A stretch of DNA of 64,000 nucleotides from Longimicrobiales bacterium (lineage in GTDB: Bacteria; Gemmatimonadota; Gemmatimonadetes; Longimicrobiales; Gaopeijiaceae), in the NCBI GenBank assembly GCA_965116905.1, contig OZ220732.1, positions 1,920,001 to 1,984,000 of the forward strand, in the 5' to 3' direction. The position numbers and the translations under genes are program-made. The notes under the pieces are model-generated. The model saw only the letters and a program-made list of their open reading frames with translations, was not told where the DNA came from and made no database searches. The first letter of the stretch is position 1. Every line of letters begins with the position of its first letter. Below, in pieces: positions 37,285-46,849 of the stretch.

Positions 37285-37964
37285 CGGCCACTCCGCCCCC
37301 GGAGACGCGGCCACGTGAGCGGCTTCAGCGCCACGGGCCCGGCCCCCTCTCCGAGCAGGAGCTTCTCGCGCTGGTGATCGGTTCCGGAAGCGCGGCGATG
37401 CCCGCACACCGTCTGGCCGAGCGGGTACTCGACCTGTCCGGGGGACGGCTTCGGGACCTGGCTCGGGTCGACCCGGGCATTCTGGTCGGCATCCCGGGAA
37501 TCGGCCCGGCCATGGCCGCGAGGATCGTCGCGGCCATCGAACTGGGCAAACGCGTGGGGTCCGCCCGCTCCCGTCACGAGGATCCCATATCGGGGCCTGG
37601 AGATGTGCACGACATCTTTGCGCCCGCTCTGGCCCACCTCGCGCACGAGGAATTCCACGTTCTGCTGCTCAACGCCCAGAACATCGCGATCTGCCAGCGG
37701 CAGGTCACGCGGGGCATTCTCGACGCGTCCCTCATCCATCCCCGCGAGGTCTTCCGCGATGCGATCGTTCTCAGGGCGGCGGGCCTGATCCTGGTGCACA
37801 ACCATCCGTCGGGGAATCCGGAGCCTTCCGCAGAGGACCTCAAGGTGACACGGCAGCTGAGCGTTGCGGGAGACCAACTGGGCATCCCGGTCCTGGACCA
37901 CATTATCGTGGCGGGAGGGACGTTTTCGTCGCTTGCGGGGCGGGGCTGTCTGCGGGGACCTTGA
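37260..37964 (+). CDS. radC: RadC/UPF0758 JAB-domain protein
   Basis: RPRERL, HhH GIGPA, HPREVF, HNHPSG, DHII; start uncertain. Confidence 0.93.
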   Translation: MLLPSGGIAATPPPETRPRERLQRHGPGPLSEQELLALVIGSGSAAMPAHRLAERVLDLSGGRLRDLARVDPGILVGIPGIGPAMAARIVAAIELGKRVGSARSRHEDPISGPGDVHDIFAPALAHLAHEEFHVLLLNAQNIAICQRQVTRGILDASLIHPREVFRDAIVLRAAGLILVHNHPSGNPEPSAEDLKVTRQLSVAGDQLGIPVLDHIIVAGGTFSSLAGRGCLRGP

Positions 37965-38001
37965 AGGGGGTTCCGATAACGATCCGATCCGGAGGGGTGC
38001 A

Positions 38002-39909
38002 TTGAACGGGACCAACCCGGCGCGGCGGGAGCGCATCCCCGTTCGCGTCATGAAGGATCATGACGCTATCGCGGCCGAGGTGGCCGGGCGCATCTCGGCG
38101 CTCATGCGGCAGCGTGCCAAGGAGGGCCGCGATGTCGTGCTCGGGCTCGCGACGGGCTCGACGCCCGTGGGCGTCTACCGCGAACTGATTCGGCTGCACC
38201 GCGACGAAGGGCTCGACTTCTCCAACGTCGTCACCTTCAACCTCGACGAGTACTACCCGATGCAGCCTGGCAGCATCCACAGCTACCATCGCTACATGCG
38301 GGAGAACCTCTTCGAGCACGTCAACATCTGTCCCGATCGCTGCCACATACCCCGTGGTGACCTGGCCGGAAAGGAGGTGGAGGCTCACTGTCGCGACTTC
38401 GAGCGCCGCATTCGGGCTGCCGGAGGCATCGACCTGCAGATTCTGGGCATCGGTCGCACAGGTCACATCGGCTTCAACGAACCCGGGTCGGCCCGCCGTT
38501 CGCGCACGCGGCAACTCTACCTCGACACGGTCACGCGGGCCGACGCCGCGGCCGATTTCTTCGGCGAGGAAAACGTGCCGCCGCAGGCGATCACCATGGG
38601 GGTTGCGACCATTCTGGAGGCCCGCGAAGTCGTGCTGCTGGCTACTGGCGAACACAAGGCCGCGATCGTGCGTCGCGCCGTCGAGGGCGAGGTTCATGCC
38701 GATGTGGCCGCTACGTTCCTGCAGCAGCACCCGGCCTCGACCGTCTATCTGGATCCCGCGGCGGCTGCGGATCTCACACGGATCCGCACGCCCTGGCTGG
38801 TCGGAGATGTTGAATGGACGCCCCACTGGGAGACCGAGGCGGTGGTCTGGCTCAGCCAGCGCACCGGCAAGCCCATCCTCCACCTGGCCACCGACGACTA
38901 CCGGGAGCACCACCTCGGGTCGCTGGTGTCGCGATATGGGTCGGCCGAGCCGCTCAACGGGGAGGTCTTCAATACCCTGATCGCCAAGATCCGCGGCAAG
39001 AGTCGACTGCCGCGCGGCCAGAGGATGCTGGTTTTCTCGCCGCACCCCGACGACGACGTGATCTCGATGGGAGGGCTGCTGCGGAAGCTCACGGAGAACG
39101 GCAACCACGTTACCGTCGCCTACCAGACGTCGGGGAACATCGCCGTCTTCGACCACGAGGTGCGGCGCTACCTGGACTTCATGCGCAGGACGGCCAGGGT
39201 GATCGACCTTGGGGACAGGGAAGTCCTGGAGGACGTCTTGAGGTCCGTGGAGGAGGATCTTGCCGGGAAGGAGCCCGGTGACGTCGATTCCGCCGTCGTG
39301 CAGGATCTGAAACGGATCATCCGCGAGAGCGAGGCGTCGGCGGGCATTGCCGAACTGGGCCTGTCCACCGATCACGCGCGCTTCCTCAACATGCCGTTCT
39401 ACCAGACGGGGGAGGTCAGGAAGGATCCGATCTCGGAGGCCGACGTGCAGATCGTCGTCGGCCTGCTGGAGGAAGTGCGTCCGACGATGGTGTTCGCCGC
39501 GGGCGACCTGTCCGACCCGCACGGAACCCACCGCATGTGCCTGGAGGCGGTCGAGCGTGCACTCGCGCGCTACGGCGGCGACCCGCCCTGGCTCTGGCTG
39601 TATCGCGGCGCCTGGCAGGAGTGGAGCGTGAACGAGGCGACGGTGCTCGTACCGCTTTCGGACGGCGAGATGCGCGCCAAGGTGCAGGCGATCTTCCGGC
39701 ACGAGTCGCAGAAGGATTCGGCTCCCTTCCCCGGTCCGGACGACCGCGAGTTCTGGCAGCGTGTGGTCGACCGCAACCGGGGGACGGCGGACCTGCTTCA
39801 GTCACTGGGACTGCCCGCGTATCGTGCCATGGAGGCGTACGTGACGTTGCGGGCGGGGTGCCGGGTGGAGGCGCAGGAGATTCCGACATCGTCGCTGGCG
39901 GAGAAGTAG
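38002..39909 (+). CDS. nagB: glucosamine-6-phosphate deaminase fused to PIG-L-like deacetylase domain
   Basis: GLATGSTP, FNLDEY, GHIGFNEPG; C-terminal SPHPDDDVISMGG and DPHGTH; TTG start after GGAGG. Confidence 0.93.
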   Translation: MNGTNPARRERIPVRVMKDHDAIAAEVAGRISALMRQRAKEGRDVVLGLATGSTPVGVYRELIRLHRDEGLDFSNVVTFNLDEYYPMQPGSIHSYHRYMRENLFEHVNICPDRCHIPRGDLAGKEVEAHCRDFERRIRAAGGIDLQILGIGRTGHIGFNEPGSARRSRTRQLYLDTVTRADAAADFFGEENVPPQAITMGVATILEAREVVLLATGEHKAAIVRRAVEGEVHADVAATFLQQHPASTVYLDPAAAADLTRIRTPWLVGDVEWTPHWETEAVVWLSQRTGKPILHLATDDYREHHLGSLVSRYGSAEPLNGEVFNTLIAKIRGKSRLPRGQRMLVFSPHPDDDVISMGGLLRKLTENGNHVTVAYQTSGNIAVFDHEVRRYLDFMRRTARVIDLGDREVLEDVLRSVEEDLAGKEPGDVDSAVVQDLKRIIRESEASAGIAELGLSTDHARFLNMPFYQTGEVRKDPISEADVQIVVGLLEEVRPTMVFAAGDLSDPHGTHRMCLEAVERALARYGGDPPWLWLYRGAWQEWSVNEATVLVPLSDGEMRAKVQAIFRHESQKDSAPFPGPDDREFWQRVVDRNRGTADLLQSLGLPAYRAMEAYVTLRAGCRVEAQEIPTSSLAEK

Positions 39910-39978: not shown

Positions 39979-40143
39979 ATGTCAGAGTGTCCCGTATGTG
40001 CCGGAGAAGTCGAGATCTCTCCCGACCCCGTGGAAGGAGAGTTGCTGGAATGCGACGAGTGCGGCGTCGAACTCGAGATTCTGGCCCTGAAACCCCTAAC
40101 GCTCGGGGAGGCTCCCGAAGCGGAAGAGGATTGGGGGGAATGA
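39979..40143 (+). CDS. lysW: LysW/ArgW amino-group carrier protein (54 aa)
   Basis: [54 protein letters not shown]: two CxxC plus diagnostic C-terminal EDWGE; GAGGAG RBS; not in ORF track. Confidence 0.97.
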
Positions 40144-40985
40144 GGGTAGGCTTCCTTCATTCCCTGATCCGGAAGGACGAGAAGCTCCTGATCGCGGAAC
40201 TCCGGAAGCGGGACGACATGGAGCTGGTCTTCCTGGACGACCGCAAACTCGTCCTGGACCTTGGGCACGCCCCCGAAGTCGACATCGTGCTGGAGCGGTC
40301 GATCAACCATTCGCGAGCCATGCACGCGTTGCGCCTCTTCGAGGGCGCGGGCACGCGGTGCGTCAACACCTATGAAGTCGCGCGCCGGTGCGGGGACAAG
40401 ATCCTCACCGCCGTGTCGCTGCAGGAGAGCGGGGTGCCTCAGCCCGAGGTGCGCGTCGCGTTTACGCCCGAGTCGGCGCTGGTGGCGATCGAGGAGCTGG
40501 GCTACCCGGCCGTGCTCAAGCCGGCGGTCGGTTCGTGGGGCCGCCTGCTGTCGAAGATCAACGACCGGGACGCGGCGGAGACCGTGCTCGAGCACAAGTC
40601 CATCCTGGGCAGCTACCACCATTCGATCTTCTTCGTGCAGGAGTACGTGGAGAAGAACGGCCGCGACATCCGCGCATTCGTGGTCGGCGACCAGTGCGTC
40701 GCGGCGATCTACCGCTCGTCCGAGCACTGGATCACCAACACCGCCCGGGGCGCCCGCGCCACCAACTGCCCCGTGACCGTCCCCCTCGCCGAGATGGCCC
40801 TGCGCGCTGCGGACGCGGTCGGCGGCGGGGTCCTTGCGGTCGACCTCTTCGAGACCGCGGACGGCCTCCTGGTCAACGAGGTCAACTACACGATGGAGTT
40901 CCGCAACAGCGTCGACGTCACGGGGGTGAACATCCCCGAGCGCGTCGTGTCCTACGTGGCGGCGGCCGGATCGTCCCGCCCATGA
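40140..40985 (+). CDS. lysX: LysW--alpha-aminoadipate ligase (ATP-grasp, RimK family)
   Basis: [42 protein letters not shown] overlaps lysW stop. Confidence 0.95.
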
Positions 40986-42004
40986 TCCGGGTCGCGATCG
41001 CGGGGGGCTCCGGCTATGCCGGCGGCGAGCTGTTACGGCTGCTCACTGCGCACCCCGATGCGGACGTCGTCCAGATCACGTCGGAACGACTGGCCGGCAA
41101 GCTCGCGCACCGTGCCCACCCCAATCTGCGCGGCAACACGCGGCTCCGCTTCCGCACCCTCGGCGAACTGAACGAGTGCGACGTCCTCTTTTCCTGCCTG
41201 CCGCACGGCGAGTCCGCGCGTCGTATCGACGACTTCCGCCGCATCGCTCCCCGCGTGATCGACCTCGGCGCCGACTTCCGCCTGGGCGATGCCACCGAAT
41301 ACGAGCGCTTTTACGGGAGCCAGCACCCCCGCCCCGACCTGCTTGGCCGATTCGTCTACGGGATCGCGGAACTGAACCGGGACGCACTCGCCCATGCCGA
41401 CCTGGTGGCGTGCGCCGGTTGCAACGCGACGGCCGCGATCCTCGCGCTTCGTCCCTTGTACCTGGAGGGAGTGGCGGACTCGGCGGTGGTCGAGGTGAAG
41501 GTCGGCTCGAGCGAGGCCGGCAACCGCCCGACGCCCGGGAGCCACCATCCCGAGCGGAGCGGCGCCATGCGCTCGTACAAGCCCACCGGGCATCGCCACC
41601 TGGCCGAGATTCGCGCCGCGCTAGGGGGAGACATTCACTTTTCGGCGACCGCGGTCGAGATGGTGCGGGGTGTCCTCGCCACCTGTCACGCATTCGTGAA
41701 CCGCGACCTCGACGACAAGGCGCTGTGGCGGATCTATCGGAAGGCCTACGCCTCCGAACCCTTCGTCCGAATCGTCAAGGAACGCGCCGGGATCCATCGG
41801 TACCCGGACCCCAGTCTGCTTGCGGGCTCGAACTACTGCGATGTCGGATTCGAGCGCGATCCGCTGGCCGGACGCGTCGTGGTGGTGAGCGCGATCGACA
41901 ACCTCATGAAGGGAGCGGCCGGGCAGGCGGTGCAGGCCTTCAACGTGATGCATGGTCTTCCCGAGACCCGTGGGCTGGAGTTCCCCGGCCTGCACCCGGC
42001 CTGA
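40982..42004 (+). CDS. lysY: [LysW]-aminoadipate 6-phosphate reductase (ArgC family)
   Basis: [45 protein letters not shown]. Confidence 0.93.
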
Positions 42005-42011
42005 CCGGCCG

Positions 42012-42749
42012 ATGTGCCGCCTGTTGTGCGTTCAGGGCCGCGAGGCCTTCGAGATGGCGGGTCACCTCGATGCGTTCGCAGCCGTCGCCAGAGACTGCCG
42101 TGAGTATCAGGGTCACGGCTGGGGATGCGCGTGGCTCGACCGCGGCGTGTGGCGGCTCCACCACGATATCGCACCGATCTGGGAGGATTCCTGGAGGCCG
42201 CCGGGCCGGACGAAGCTGCTCGTGGCTCATGCGAGAAGCGCGTTCCGCGACGAGGGAATCCGCGTGGAGAACAATATGCCGTTCACCGACGGAGAACGCG
42301 TGTTCGTCTTCAACGGCGAACTCCACGGCGTGAGGATCAAGGAGCGGGGCCGAATCGGCGCCGAGAAGGTGTTCAACTTCGTCAAGCGCTTCGATCGCGG
42401 AGATTTCGGGCTGGCGCTGCAGCGGGGACTCGGGGTGATCGAGAAGCGCACCCGCCACGTGCGTGCAATGAACCTGATCGTGGCCGACCGGTCGGCTCAG
42501 GTTCACGTTGCGATGAACTTCCGGGAGGATCCCGAATACTTTCAAATGCACACTGCGGAATCGGACGGTTTCCGGATCGTCTGCTCCGATCCCTATCCCG
42601 AGTCCACCGGGCGCCGCCCGTCCGAGGCGTCCGGCGGGTTGCCCGAGCCCTTTGCGCCCGAAGCCCATGCGGGGGCGGCCGTGGCGTGGGTTCCCCTGCG
42701 GAAGGGTGAGGTGCTGACCTTCAACCGCGAACCGTCCGGCCAGCGATGA
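42012..42749 (+). CDS. class II glutamine amidotransferase / Ntn-hydrolase (EgtC/DUG3/YafJ-like)
   Basis: N-terminal M-C-R (Cys nucleophile), HGWG, AHARSA, ENNMPF, FNGEL motifs. Confidence 0.88.
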   Translation: MCRLLCVQGREAFEMAGHLDAFAAVARDCREYQGHGWGCAWLDRGVWRLHHDIAPIWEDSWRPPGRTKLLVAHARSAFRDEGIRVENNMPFTDGERVFVFNGELHGVRIKERGRIGAEKVFNFVKRFDRGDFGLALQRGLGVIEKRTRHVRAMNLIVADRSAQVHVAMNFREDPEYFQMHTAESDGFRIVCSDPYPESTGRRPSEASGGLPEPFAPEAHAGAAVAWVPLRKGEVLTFNREPSGQR

Positions 42750-42762
42750 ATGGAGTGACAAG

Positions 42763-43554
42763 GTGCTGCTCGTAAAGATCGGCGGCGGTGAGTCAATCAA
42801 TCTGGCGGGCATCGCCAGCGACCTTGCCGATGTCGATGATTCCGTCTGCATCGTCCACGGGGCCAACGCGCTTCGTGACGACCTGGCGCGGCGGCTGGAG
42901 GTGGACAAGCAGGTTCTGACCTCCGTTTCGGGTTACACCAGCGTGTACACGGACGAGAAGCTCATGGACGTGATGCTCATGGCCTACTCGGGGCTCCGCA
43001 ACAAGCGCCTGGTGGAGCTGTTGCAGAGGCACGGGGTGAATGCGGTGGGACTTACCGGCCTGGACGGTGCTCTCGTTCGCGGCACGCGCAACAAGGGCAT
43101 CCGCGTGCGGCAGGGTGGGAAGACCCTGATCAAGCGGGATCTGTCGGGCAAGCCGGTCACGGTGAACGGGCAACTGCTCCGGCTCCTGCTGGACAACGGC
43201 TACACGCCGGTCGTGACCGTGCCGGTGATCGACGAAAACAGTTTTGCCATCAACTCGGAAAACGACGACGTCGTCGCCGCGTTGAATACGGTGCTGAAGG
43301 CGAGCATAGTGGTGCAATTGATCGAGGCGCCCGGCATCCTGGAGGACCGTCACGACCCCGGATCCCTGATCCGGCGCATCCCGCGTGGCGAATTGGCCGA
43401 TCGGGAGAAGCGTGTGGCTGGCCGCATGAAACGCAAGCTGCTGGCGCTCAGACGGCTCACCGAAGAGTCGTCGACGCAGGTGGTGGTGGCGGACGGACGC
43501 CGCGAAAAGCCGCTGACGGATGCGCTGGCCGGCGAGGGGACCGTGATCCTGTGA
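42763..43554 (+). CDS. lysZ: [LysW]-aminoadipate kinase (ArgB family)
   Basis: VKIGG, IVHGAN, TSVSGYTSVYTD, GLTGLDG, GRMKRKL. Confidence 0.93.
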   Translation: MLLVKIGGGESINLAGIASDLADVDDSVCIVHGANALRDDLARRLEVDKQVLTSVSGYTSVYTDEKLMDVMLMAYSGLRNKRLVELLQRHGVNAVGLTGLDGALVRGTRNKGIRVRQGGKTLIKRDLSGKPVTVNGQLLRLLLDNGYTPVVTVPVIDENSFAINSENDDVVAALNTVLKASIVVQLIEAPGILEDRHDPGSLIRRIPRGELADREKRVAGRMKRKLLALRRLTEESSTQVVVADGRREKPLTDALAGEGTVIL

Positions 43555-44747
43555 GCACACGCGCGGACCGGCCCGGCAAGGCAGTTCCCGAGCCTCGGGA
43601 CGCGCAGGCGACCGAGCGCGCCTATGGGCTTGAAGTCTATCCCAAGCGTGACCTTACAGTCGTCAGGGGAAGGGGAGCGGAGGTCTGGGACGACAACGGC
43701 CGCCGCTACATCGACTGCGTCGCTGGGATCGGGGTGGCAAGTGTCGGACACGCCAACGCTGCGGTCGCCGCGGCCGTGGCCGAACAGGCGCGAACGCTTG
43801 TGACCTGCCCCGGGATCTTCTACAACGACACGCGCGCGCGTCTGCTGGAGAAGCTGGCCGAGGTGGCCCCCGAAGGCCTCTCACACGCCTTTCTTTGCAA
43901 CTCGGGAACCGAGGCGATCGAGGCGGCGTTCAAGTTCGCGCGCATCGTGACGGGACGCGTCGGAGTCGTTTCGACCATGCGTGGGTTTCACGGCCGGACG
44001 CTCGGGGCCCTCAGCGCGACGCACAGGAAGGACTACCGGGAGCGGTTCAAGCCCCTCGTCCCGGGCTTCTCGTTCGTGCCGTTCAACAATGTGGACAAGC
44101 TGCGCGCGGCGGTGAGCGAAGCCACGGCGGCGGTGGTGATCGAGCCCATCCAGGGGGAGGGGGGAATCCGTCCCGCAAACGCGGAGTTCCTCCATGCGGC
44201 GCGCGAGGCATGCGATGAAGCGGGCGCCCTCCTGATCTTCGACGAGATCCAGACCGGCTTTTGCCGTACGGGCAGGATGTTCGCGTGCGAGCACTACGAG
44301 GTGACGCCGGACATCCTGTGCCTCGCCAAGGCGATGGGCGGCGGAGTGCCGATCGGGGCGGTGCTCGCGGTCGACCGGGTCAGCCCGCCAGTCGGCAAGC
44401 ACGGCACCACGTTCGGCGGGAATCCGCTCGCCTGCGCGGCCGCCCTGGCCGCGATCCGGTTCATGGAGGATGAGCGGTTGGCGGAGCGGGCGGCACGTCT
44501 CGGCACCCGCTTCCGCACACGGTTCGAGCGGCACTCGCCCGCTCGCGTGCGGGCGCTTCGTCAGGTCGGTCTGATGATCGGCGTCGAACTGCGCGAACGC
44601 TGCGTGCCGTACCTCAAGGCGCTGATGGAGCGAGGCGTGCTGGCGCTGCCGGCTGGAAAGACCGTGATCCGCGTGCTGCCGCCGCTGGTGATCAGCGAGG
44701 AGCAGATCGACGAAGTCGTGGACACGCTGGTTGACGTATTGGCCTAG
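43551..44747 (+). CDS. lysJ: [LysW]-aminoadipate semialdehyde transaminase (ArgD family, PLP)
   Basis: [44 protein letters not shown]. Confidence 0.92.
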
Positions 44748-44827: not shown

Positions 44828-46849
44828 TCAGCGACCGGGCCTGAAGCCGTCGACCTCCTCCAGGGCGCCCAGCGCGAAGAGCGGCGCCCAGCTCTGGAAC
44901 CGATGCCCGCGCCCTGCGCCCGTCCGGGAATCGAAGTTCTCGCGGCACATTCCCGTGCTGGCGCGGTCGGCGAGAAACATGCGGGCGCCCTTCCAGGCAA
45001 GGTCGTGGGCGAGGTCGTCGAAGCCGTACCGGCGGAGGCCCTGCAAGACAAGGTAGTTCATGGGGGGCCAGATCGAACCGCGCCAGTACTGCTGGTCATC
45101 GAAGGCGGGGTCGTCCCGCGAGATCGTGGGCAGCACCCACTCGCCCCAGAAGCGTGCCGGGTCGCGCAGTACGTCGACCATGAGCCGGGCGCGGCGCCGT
45201 GAAGGCACGCCCGCGACGAGGGGGAGGAAGTTCGACGCGGCCACGCGCGGCGACTGGCCCAGGGGGAGTTCGTCCAGGTACATGCCGGCCCTCTCGGACC
45301 AGAGGGCCGCGTTCATCGTCCTTGCGAGGTCGTGGCGCATGTCTTCCAGTCGCCGTGCGGTCGGGCCGTCGTCCAGGATGTGCGCAATGCGTGACAGGCA
45401 CTCGAGGTCGAGGGCACGGTAGCTGCAAAGGTCGACCGCCGACATCGCGAGGACCTGCCGCTCCGGATCCCACTCGGCCTCGTCCCAGAGGGGCAGATCG
45501 TCCTGGCCCGATTCCCACGCCGCGCGCTGGTGGCCGCTCGCTCCCGCTTCCCACTCGGGGACCTGCTGGGGCGGCGGAACCAGCGCCGTATCGGAACCCC
45601 ACGAAAACAGGCCCGGGGTGAGCCCTTCGCGGCGGGGCCGCCCGTTTTTCTCCGCCACCCACCACTCGCACCACGTGAGGAGGTCGGGGTACACGGCGGC
45701 GAGCCTGCCGCGGTCGGGGTGGGCCTGGTGCAGACGCAGTGCCGCGTAGGAGCCGATGGGCGGTTGCGAGCGGTCGGGTGTGCCCGCGTGGCGGCTGCGC
45801 CAGTTCGGGACGCAGCCGTTGGGGTATCGGGACCGAAGGCCAGCCAGGAGGGTGCTCCATGCGAGCTCCCGCGACACGGTCGCAAGTTCGAGGGCGTTGA
45901 AGAAGCTGTCCCACCCAAAGACGGTCCAATCATCGGGTTGCGGGGTGGTGGGCGCCGCTGGGTGTTGGCGGGTCGACTCGGCGGCGGCGCCTGGCCGAGG
46001 AAAGATCCACCGGCGGCCCGCCGGAGCGTACAGCCGTCCGGTCTCGGGCTGAAGCAAAACCGTCCACATGAGGTTGTCGGCGATGCTCTCGAGCAGATCG
46101 GGGTGGCCCACCGCCCGGGGCCGCCGCCGCCCCCACTCGCCGCGCGCCTCGTCGATCCAGGCATCCGCCTGGTCGACCAGCCGCGCGGCTCGGGCGGCGG
46201 CCCCGGCCCCTCCCCACGCGGCCACCATCACCAGACGCCCGGTCGCGCCATCCACGATGTCGAGGACGCGCGCCACCTCTCCGGCGCGCAGCGGCACGGC
46301 CGACGCGTCGCCGGGCGCGAGGCGCCGCCCCGCGCCCGGCGCGAACGCGGTGGCGATGTCCACGCTCCCGCACCGGGTCCGCCAGCCGTTCACGGGCGCC
46401 GTGCCCTTGGCGACCGCAATGGCCCGGCCGTCGCCCTGTCCCTGTCCCTCCCCCTCCTCCATCTCCATCCAGCGCGGCTTCCAACTCCAGGGGGCATCCC
46501 CGATGAGCTCCAGCCGGCCCGGGGCCCTGGCCGTGACGCGCAACGCCACCGCGTTCCCGCCGCACGACCATTCCAGTACCAGGGTGCTCGATCGAGGCGC
46601 CGAAGCGGGCGACGCCTCCGCGCTCAGGTCGAACTCCATGCGCGCGTACGACCCGTCGGGCGCGTGGGGCCCGACCCGCGTGACCATCCAATACCAGTCG
46701 CCGTGATCGCGGCGGCGTCCCTCGGGATCGGTGAAGGCGAGACGAACGGCTGCGCCCTCGTTCGGACCCGCGGCAAGGACCAGGCCGGCCCAGCGGGACG
46801 CTTCCAGCGCACCGACCGACAGACCTGTCTCTGGAATCGGTCTCGCCAT
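44828..46849 (-). CDS. GH63/MGH1-like (alpha/alpha)6 glycoside hydrolase
   Basis: WDSFF, RSQPP, ESGQDD, YWRGSIWPPMNYL, ENFD motifs. Confidence 0.8.
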   Translation of the reverse strand: MARPIPETGLSVGALEASRWAGLVLAAGPNEGAAVRLAFTDPEGRRRDHGDWYWMVTRVGPHAPDGSYARMEFDLSAEASPASAPRSSTLVLEWSCGGNAVALRVTARAPGRLELIGDAPWSWKPRWMEMEEGEGQGQGDGRAIAVAKGTAPVNGWRTRCGSVDIATAFAPGAGRRLAPGDASAVPLRAGEVARVLDIVDGATGRLVMVAAWGGAGAAARAARLVDQADAWIDEARGEWGRRRPRAVGHPDLLESIADNLMWTVLLQPETGRLYAPAGRRWIFPRPGAAAESTRQHPAAPTTPQPDDWTVFGWDSFFNALELATVSRELAWSTLLAGLRSRYPNGCVPNWRSRHAGTPDRSQPPIGSYAALRLHQAHPDRGRLAAVYPDLLTWCEWWVAEKNGRPRREGLTPGLFSWGSDTALVPPPQQVPEWEAGASGHQRAAWESGQDDLPLWDEAEWDPERQVLAMSAVDLCSYRALDLECLSRIAHILDDGPTARRLEDMRHDLARTMNAALWSERAGMYLDELPLGQSPRVAASNFLPLVAGVPSRRRARLMVDVLRDPARFWGEWVLPTISRDDPAFDDQQYWRGSIWPPMNYLVLQGLRRYGFDDLAHDLAWKGARMFLADRASTGMCRENFDSRTGAGRGHRFQSWAPLFALGALEEVDGFRPGR

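Follow-up and report, generated by a model that had tools for sequence, protein, structure and literature searches.

A putative Ntn-fold cysteine amidohydrolase as a candidate LysK substitute in LysW operons of a Longimicrobiales bacterium and its relatives

The stretch of DNA analyzed here, hereafter the window, comprises 64,000 nt of a Longimicrobiales bacterium (GCA_965116905.1, contig OZ220732.1, positions 1,920,001 to 1,984,000) and carries an operon in the order lysW-lysX-lysY-Ntn-lysZ-lysJ, whose neighboring genes overlap or nearly abut (Table 1). The LysW-pathway gene set lysW, lysX, lysZ, lysY, and lysJ is complete in this operon; lysY is the sole ArgC-like gene detected in the genome, the signature position of lysX was read by alignment to T. 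thermophilus LysX (3vpd), and the best model for lysJ is NF042418 (LysJ; 476 bits, under the cut-off of 700). The operon closes with lysJ, and no lysK follows downstream. The window's LysW has the tail EEDWGE and the C-terminal residue Glu54, the proposed substrate site of the Ntn hydrolase. The Ntn open reading frame begins MCRLL, so that Cys2 becomes N-terminal once Met is removed; an alternative start at 41952 was rejected, as the longer frame shares sequence with lysY and would leave the Cys internal. The fusion gene directly upstream of lysW is probably a chromosomal neighbor; a glycoside hydrolase gene convergent with lysJ and a GPP34-cytochrome P450 fusion lie on the other side of the operon.

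Table 1. Features of the LysW operon, its surroundings, and related loci (window positions, unless a locus or contig is named).
Feature	Position	Strand	Basis or context
NagB-like deaminase fused to PIG-L deacetylase domain	37864-39909	+	in 42 close loci too
lysW, amino-group carrier protein, 54 aa	39979..40143	+	TIGR01206 55.9 bits vs cut-off 53.2; PF21344
lysX, ATP-grasp ligase, F-I-T-NS signature	40140..40985	+	TIGR02144 335 bits vs 275.6
lysY, ArgC-like reductase	40982..42004	+	TIGR01850 375 bits
Ntn cysteine amidohydrolase, 245 aa, putative LysW-gamma-lysine hydrolase	42012..42749	+	ORF, profiles, fold
Cys2, N-terminal nucleophile (GlmS C1)	42015..42017	+	
HARSAF 73-78, Arg75 = GlmS R73, Phe78 in place of T76	42228..42245	+	
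N101-G102 oxyanion-hole motif, then Glu103	42312..42320	+	
VRIKERGRIGAEK 107-119, shortened loop with basic patch, Gly113, Gly116, Lys119	42330..42368	+	
lysZ, [LysW]-aminoadipate kinase	42763..43554	+	NF010659 237 bits vs 223
lysJ, class III aminotransferase	43551..44747	+	TIGR00707 above cut-off
MGH1-like glycoside hydrolase	44828-46849	-	in 20 related loci too
GPP34 domain fused to cytochrome P450	46909-48963	+	in 8 related loci too
LeuA/homocitrate-synthase-like gene	G000:C1:1450773-1452200		below all curated cut-offs
Fused 717-aa aconitase-like gene	G000:C1:925212-927365		below all curated cut-offs
Second lysX paralogues	L261:7833-8666, L262:194-1015, L264:8023-8844, L265:7710-8537		
Second lysX paralogues, continued	L266:998-1825, L270:6446-7267, L275:9134-9967		
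Possibly unlinked Ntn family member	L192:480-1118		1.4-kb contig
Two Ntn copies	L143: 604-1266 and 3026-3688		2.4 kb apart
Frameshifted lysW	L057:4961-5115		
Conserved gene, ~218 aa, upstream of lysW	L200:2402-3058		divergent from lysW

By its structure model (pLDDT 91.6; input of 78 aligned relatives), the Ntn hydrolase is an EgtC/YafJ-like protein with the alpha-beta-beta-alpha Ntn fold, in which residues about 196-224 form a variable, low-confidence insertion. The best fold match of the model was EgtC (Foldseek TM 0.71; Z 25.9, rmsd 1.9, 202 residues), followed by GlmS (Z 22.3) and PurF (Z about 22). The EgtC profile TIGR03442 scored 26.7 bits against a cut-off of 218.65, the sequence match to PDB 4zfj had an E-value of 0.004, and M20 profiles gave no match to the protein; databases name its relatives class II glutamine amidotransferase. 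Like EgtC (PDB 4zfj/4zfk/4zfl; TIGR03442), the Ntn hydrolase is a stand-alone Ntn domain with an MCR start and GWG, PxW, R-S-A, and N-G motifs; unlike EgtC, with which it shares 17% identity, it has no egt genes nearby, its neighbors being lysWXYZJ. EgtC belongs to the ergothioneine pathway, where it cleaves a gamma-glutamyl group from an amino acid by amide hydrolysis (PMC9103826). The alpha-amino group of the EgtC substrate is free, whereas that of the LysW substrate proposed here is peptide-linked. EgtC-model matches from other genomes keep T-D-S-E, the Asp of which is presumably also found in mycobacterial EgtC itself.

The YafJ-like/GATase_4 proteins, with which we would group yeast Dug3, belong to the same Pfam family (PF13230; PDB 1te5, 3mdn), which 44/78 members of the Ntn group match with weak scores, and their G-x-T-D-S-E stands in register with G-R-I-G-A-E of the Ntn hydrolase. 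They differ in keeping the Asp, in having mostly Thr/Ser after R-x-A, in a stretch of 20-30 rather than 15-19 residues from the Asn to the Asp position, and in lacking Lys119; no lysW genes occur in their fetched flanks, and the Ntn family forms a separate clade. With the glutaminase domains of GlmS and PurF (PDB 1xff, 1ecb) the Ntn hydrolase shares the Ntn fold and the equivalents of C1, R73, P87, N98, and G99; unlike these enzymes, it is without a synthase domain and has lost most of the helix that follows N-G. Relative to GlmS, D123 is replaced by Gly, T76 by Phe (in subfamily A, see below), and, in the window protein, H86 by Met.

A first-pass annotation of this DNA had compared the protein with GlmS by eye and had pointed out the motifs HARSA, FNG, and RIGAE and the basic patch VRIKERGRIG; the Ntn open reading frame has all of them, as HARSAF (73-78), FNG (100-102), RIGAE (114-118), and VRIKERGRIG (107-116). 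Its reading that the Cys nucleophile, the Arg of H-x-R, and N-G are kept, and that the Asp of T-D-S/T-E is lost in RIGAE, agrees with the residue mapping: Cys2 corresponds to C1, Arg75 to R73, Phe78 to T76, Asn101-Gly102 to N98-G99, and Gly116 to D123, where the E. coli GlmS numbering (C1, R73, T76, N98, G99, D123) was taken from the PDB alignment of the genome's own GlmS. Gly116 fell on the T-D-S/T-E Asp in four alignments: the family profile against 3mdn (G-x-I-G-A-E on G-S-T-D-S-E), a joint MAFFT alignment, a profile-profile alignment (probability 99.96), and an alignment with a second outgroup set. Single-sequence hhalign comparisons, of low probability for both GlmS (0.3) and PurF (14.3), left the register of Gly116 and Asp unchanged. 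The mapping is profile-based and not a superposition, as Foldseek and VIA-align give no residue pairs. We take GlmS Asp123 to be the residue that binds the alpha-amino group of glutamine; a direct statement of this role was not found in the literature searched, which left most subscription journals outside its coverage. For asparagine synthetase, substrate recognition is assigned to Asp-96 (the GlmS D123 equivalent), Arg-48, Asn-74, Gly-75, and Glu-76 (PMC6748925).

Conservation was read from a family set cleared of fragments, 361 distinct sequences of full length that share 23-91% identity with the query. An N-terminal Cys was an entry requirement, so that conservation of Cys2 holds by construction. 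Position 116 is Gly in 361/361 of these sequences, and its equivalent is Asp in 43/43 outgroup proteins (14/14 in a first set, made up of GlmS and PurF of the window genome and 12 Acidobacteriota proteins of the YafJ/EgtC-like type, with locus L255 left out for want of a start, and 29/29 in a second set of distinct proteins encoded at 35 Pseudomonadota loci). The flanks of the YafJ/EgtC-like outgroup (1.5 to 6 kb) had no lysW, lysX, lysY, or lysZ match. Arg75 is conserved at 100%, Asn101 at 100%, and Gly102 at 99%. Two outcomes that the first-pass annotation had named as contrary to its reading, an Asp conserved at another position and the same Gly in homologs unlinked to lysW, did not appear: the 361 sequences hold no family-wide conserved Asp or Glu as a candidate substitute, D59 alone being acidic in at least 90% and shared by 57% of the outgroup, and the Gly is absent from all 43 outside relatives. 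Two family-wide features had been overlooked. Position 119 is basic throughout (96% Lys, 4% Arg; 1/43 in the outgroup), and the stretch from Asn101 to Gly116 is short, at 15-19 residues against 20-30 in the outgroup; mycobacterial EgtC may, we assume, share the short stretch.

Other changes around the active site divide the family. The position three places after Arg75 is aromatic or Leu in 245/361 sequences (subfamily A, including the window protein), and another residue in the remaining 116/361; in subfamily B (n = 107) the motif reads HARSA-S-F, Ser/Thr filling the position in 103/107, and 9 sequences belong to neither subfamily. Similarly, basic residues occupy positions 108, 110, and 114 in 99, 79, and 91% of subfamily A and in 26, 9, and 43% of subfamily B, and position 112 of the patch is unconserved in both. 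The Thr-to-Phe change and the basic patch, which the first-pass annotation had linked to the substrate and to docking of the acidic LysW, therefore exist in the window protein and its subfamily and were rejected as family-wide features. Glu103 (97% in subfamily A, 3% in subfamily B) resembles the Glu of the asparagine synthetase N-G-E motif and, judged by the alignment, could serve as an alternative acidic contact in subfamily A, the sole such candidate. Since the Ntn family is one clade (support 100/99 against the outgroup; tree of 33 family and 12 outgroup rows), the Asp-to-Gly substitution arose once, and as a single event it is statistically inseparable from other ancestral changes; at the sequence level, the invariant Gly116 shows constraint, not cause. 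The earlier argument that loss of the Asp suits a LysW glutamate with a peptide-linked amino group thus passed both sequence comparisons, but it draws on a single event, and the accompanying changes that it invoked are those of subfamily A.

The 80 closest genome loci have the gene order of the window wherever the contig permits, except L053 (lysW-X-Y-Ntn), where lysZ and lysJ are not nearby. Distant metagenome members (22-38% identity) are arranged W-X-Y-(homocitrate synthase)-Z-J-Ntn; in these operons the Ntn gene takes the slot after lysJ that lysK holds in W-X-Y-Z-J-K operons. A LysW-pathway gene of the same strand is found no more than 500 bp away in 202/209 family loci (some genomes repeated), and 6 of the 7 exceptions are at contig ends, 2 of those behind an apparent lysJ tail. 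One family member, L192, which has Gly at the Asp position, is possibly unlinked: on its short contig it is preceded by a dehydrogenase-like gene, and no lys gene was seen. In split operons the Ntn gene stands beside lysZ or lysJ in 9/9 cases, and the Ntn gene is likewise absent from four genomes of the same genus that have no lysX. Related proteins numbered 2985 in a profile search, of which the best 120 were inspected. A lysK hidden among the gap genes of family operons was rejected, these genes being homocitrate-synthase-like; a LysK query against the family loci gave one weak match only (29%), adjoining a canonical argB.

Several loci carry peculiarities of their own. One has two Ntn copies, and another a frameshifted lysW. 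A conserved gene of ~218 aa, placed upstream of lysW and oriented away from it, is shared by 28 distant loci; it had no NCBIfam match at 1e-10 and is possibly a lysine-sensing regulator. A second lysX paralogue occurs in the operon in 7/16 LysX genomes of one phylum (that of genome G045), with SC, NG, SI, GC, or SS at the NS position; this paralogue may charge LysW with a different amino acid, in which case the Ntn hydrolase would be a multi-cargo release enzyme.

LysK frees lysine from LysW-gamma-lysine (bioRxiv 10.1101/2021.12.28.474397). It is absent from the window genome, a 97%-complete, one-contig assembly in which the best TIGR01902 score was 64 bits against a cut-off of 163.1; as a control, the profile exceeded its cut-off in 4/14 genomes, and LysK was found in 0/50 genomes with the Ntn cluster (50 of 80 loci tested). 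Phylum samples were then defined by LysX alone (42/401 genomes in Acidobacteriota, 19/201 in the phylum of the window genome, and 16/121 in the phylum of G045; the phylum shared by G042 and G031 had LysX in 1/401). The 42 Acidobacteriota comprised 19 genomes with Ntn, 22 with LysK, 0 with both, and 1 with neither, besides a further, 20th Ntn genome in which LysX was not matched; the 19 genomes of the window's own phylum comprised 17 with Ntn, 2 with LysK, 0 with both, and 0 with neither; and the 16 of the G045 phylum comprised 15 with Ntn (one partial), 0 with LysK, 0 with both, and 1 with neither. Pooled, 77 LysX genomes gave 51 with Ntn, 24 with LysK, 0 with both, and 2 with neither, both of the latter being fragmented assemblies; these counts are not independent and nominal P values are too strong, since the genomes are kin and the release type changes only twice on the LysX tree. 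Like LysK (TIGR01902), the Ntn hydrolase has the same operon slot and the same inferred reaction; unlike LysK, an M20 metallopeptidase with metal-activated water, it has an unrelated fold and would proceed through a Cys thioester. The Ntn hydrolase resembles EgtC in chemistry and LysK in role, and is a member of neither.

Since the Ntn gene lies in LysW operons without LysK and its product has lost the Asp for free glutamine, the enzyme likely releases lysine from the carrier; we regard it as most probably a non-homologous LysK substitute that cuts finished lysine off LysW. By analogy with class II amidotransferase chemistry, we infer that Met removal would expose Cys2 for attack on the gamma-amide of LysW-gamma-lysine, the bond between the gamma-carboxyl of the C-terminal Glu of LysW and the alpha-amino group of lysine. 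Asn101-Gly102 would stabilize the oxyanion and Arg75 would grip the free alpha-carboxylate of Glu54; lysine would depart, and water would hydrolyse the gamma-glutamyl-LysW thioester, regenerating LysW. Gly116 and the short loop may leave space for the Gly53-Glu54 peptide at the place that holds a free alpha-ammonium in relatives; Lys119, together with the basic residues of subfamily A, may contact the acidic EEDWGE tail. The literature searched, with most subscription journals outside its coverage, contained no report of an Ntn enzyme in LysW operons, and lysine release by a Cys amidase, the likely reaction, would be a chemistry so far undescribed for the LysW pathway.

The released product is probably lysine here, with ornithine, instead or in addition, possible in this genome; the chemistry would be the same either way. 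F-I-T-NS is the aminoadipate-type LysX signature (PMC12998189); F-I/V-T-NS is found in 110/128 Ntn-linked LysX spans scored, and a homocitrate-synthase-like gene occurs in 44 distant loci, which together make lysine the family's likely product. Ornithine as the main product of the window organism, with the enzyme's role as proposed and thus overlapping with the preferred explanation, is the less likely alternative, although it is the strongest of those considered. It arises because the operon supplies the genome's only ArgB- and ArgC-like enzymes: argF, argG, argH, and argR are present in the genome, and argJ and any ArgB or ArgC besides LysZ and LysY were not found there. The DAP-pathway genes lysA, dapF, and dapB and an aspartokinase-like gene are also present, the window operon has no clear homocitrate synthase, and Thermus LysZ and LysY accept LysW-Glu (PMC12998189). 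Against ornithine stand the aminoadipate signature of the window's own LysX, the homocitrate-synthase-like genes of the distant loci, and the LeuA/homocitrate-synthase-like and fused aconitase-like genes elsewhere in the genome (Table 1), which may supply aminoadipate or leucine; for the aminoadipate supply as a whole (homocitrate synthase, homoaconitase, homoisocitrate dehydrogenase), the genome holds only distant, below-cut-off candidates.

The carriers themselves bear on the substrate. LysX requires the gamma-carboxyl of the last Glu of LysW (bioRxiv 10.1101/2021.12.28.474397), so a carrier ending in glutamine can be loaded only after deamidation. At 180 Ntn-linked loci, 122 LysW tails were read, of which 24/122 end in EDWGQ (21/111 distinct), with CAA and CAG as terminal codons; beside LysK the count is 0/24 (0/22 and 0/2). 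The tail state changed between Glu and Gln at least 14 times on a 138-row LysX tree; in the LysK part of this tree, 3.3 changes were expected by branch length and none was seen (P about 0.04), and an independent-pairs test of release enzyme against Gln tail found 1-2 pairs and had no power. The contrast between Ntn and LysK loci is moderate evidence, and modest once branch length is used. A hydrolase of protein-bound gamma-glutamyl amides would deamidate or tolerate Gln-ending carriers, and the same active site would, by the proposed mechanism, deamidate carriers made with a C-terminal Gln; of the genomic hints, these tails point most directly to the last residue of the carrier as the substrate. 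Dop of the Pup system is a conceptual parallel only: one enzyme both deamidates the C-terminal Gln of a small protein, whose tag ends in Gln or Glu by lineage, and cleaves its gamma-glutamyl amide, with a carboxylate-amine ligase fold and a role in protein degradation.

Gln-ending carriers at about one fifth of the Ntn-linked loci also suit an enzyme of carrier maintenance, which would deamidate such LysW versions or strip mis-loaded or stalled cargo while lysine release falls to an unlinked M20 peptidase. The changes at the active site are just as compatible with such a role, and M20 genes are numerous in Ntn genomes; as a counterpoint to LysK substitution, the window genome has 16 M20 matches above the Pfam cut-off, one of them ArgE/DapE-like, and such an enzyme could moonlight in lysine release. 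We nevertheless consider maintenance alone improbable: LysW ends in Glu in most operons, including that of the window, yet the Ntn gene is kept; Ntn occurs in 0/24 LysK genomes and LysK in 0/51 Ntn genomes; and the Ntn gene occupies the place of lysK after lysJ. A standard glutaminase, or a gamma-glutamyl hydrolase of small molecules, whose gene shares the regulation of the operon and whose Asp-to-Gly change is an inherited quirk compensated by Glu103, would match the database label of the relatives, the presence of Glu103 in subfamily A, and the single origin of the substitution, but is the least credible reading, given that to our knowledge no LysW step needs free ammonia (LysJ being a PLP transaminase), that subfamily B is without both Asp116 and Glu103, and that the LysK exclusion and the Gln-ending carriers would be left unexplained.

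For the preferred reading, release of lysine from LysW by the Ntn hydrolase, a wider version has somewhat better than even prospects: a class II amidotransferase-type domain rebuilt as a protein-directed gamma-glutamyl amidase, replacing LysK across many phyla, maturing Gln-ending carriers, convergent with Dop, and with Gly116 and Lys119 as a specificity switch. The Ntn form outnumbers LysK in the three phylum samples (51 vs 24 of 77 LysX genomes). If the assignment is true, a metal-free release enzyme of this kind could find use in engineered carrier-protein pathways; class II amidotransferase-type chemistry would reach beyond free glutamine and small gamma-glutamyl compounds and include the C-terminal residue of a protein; and an apparent gap at the last step of lysine synthesis would be closed in many uncultured bacteria.
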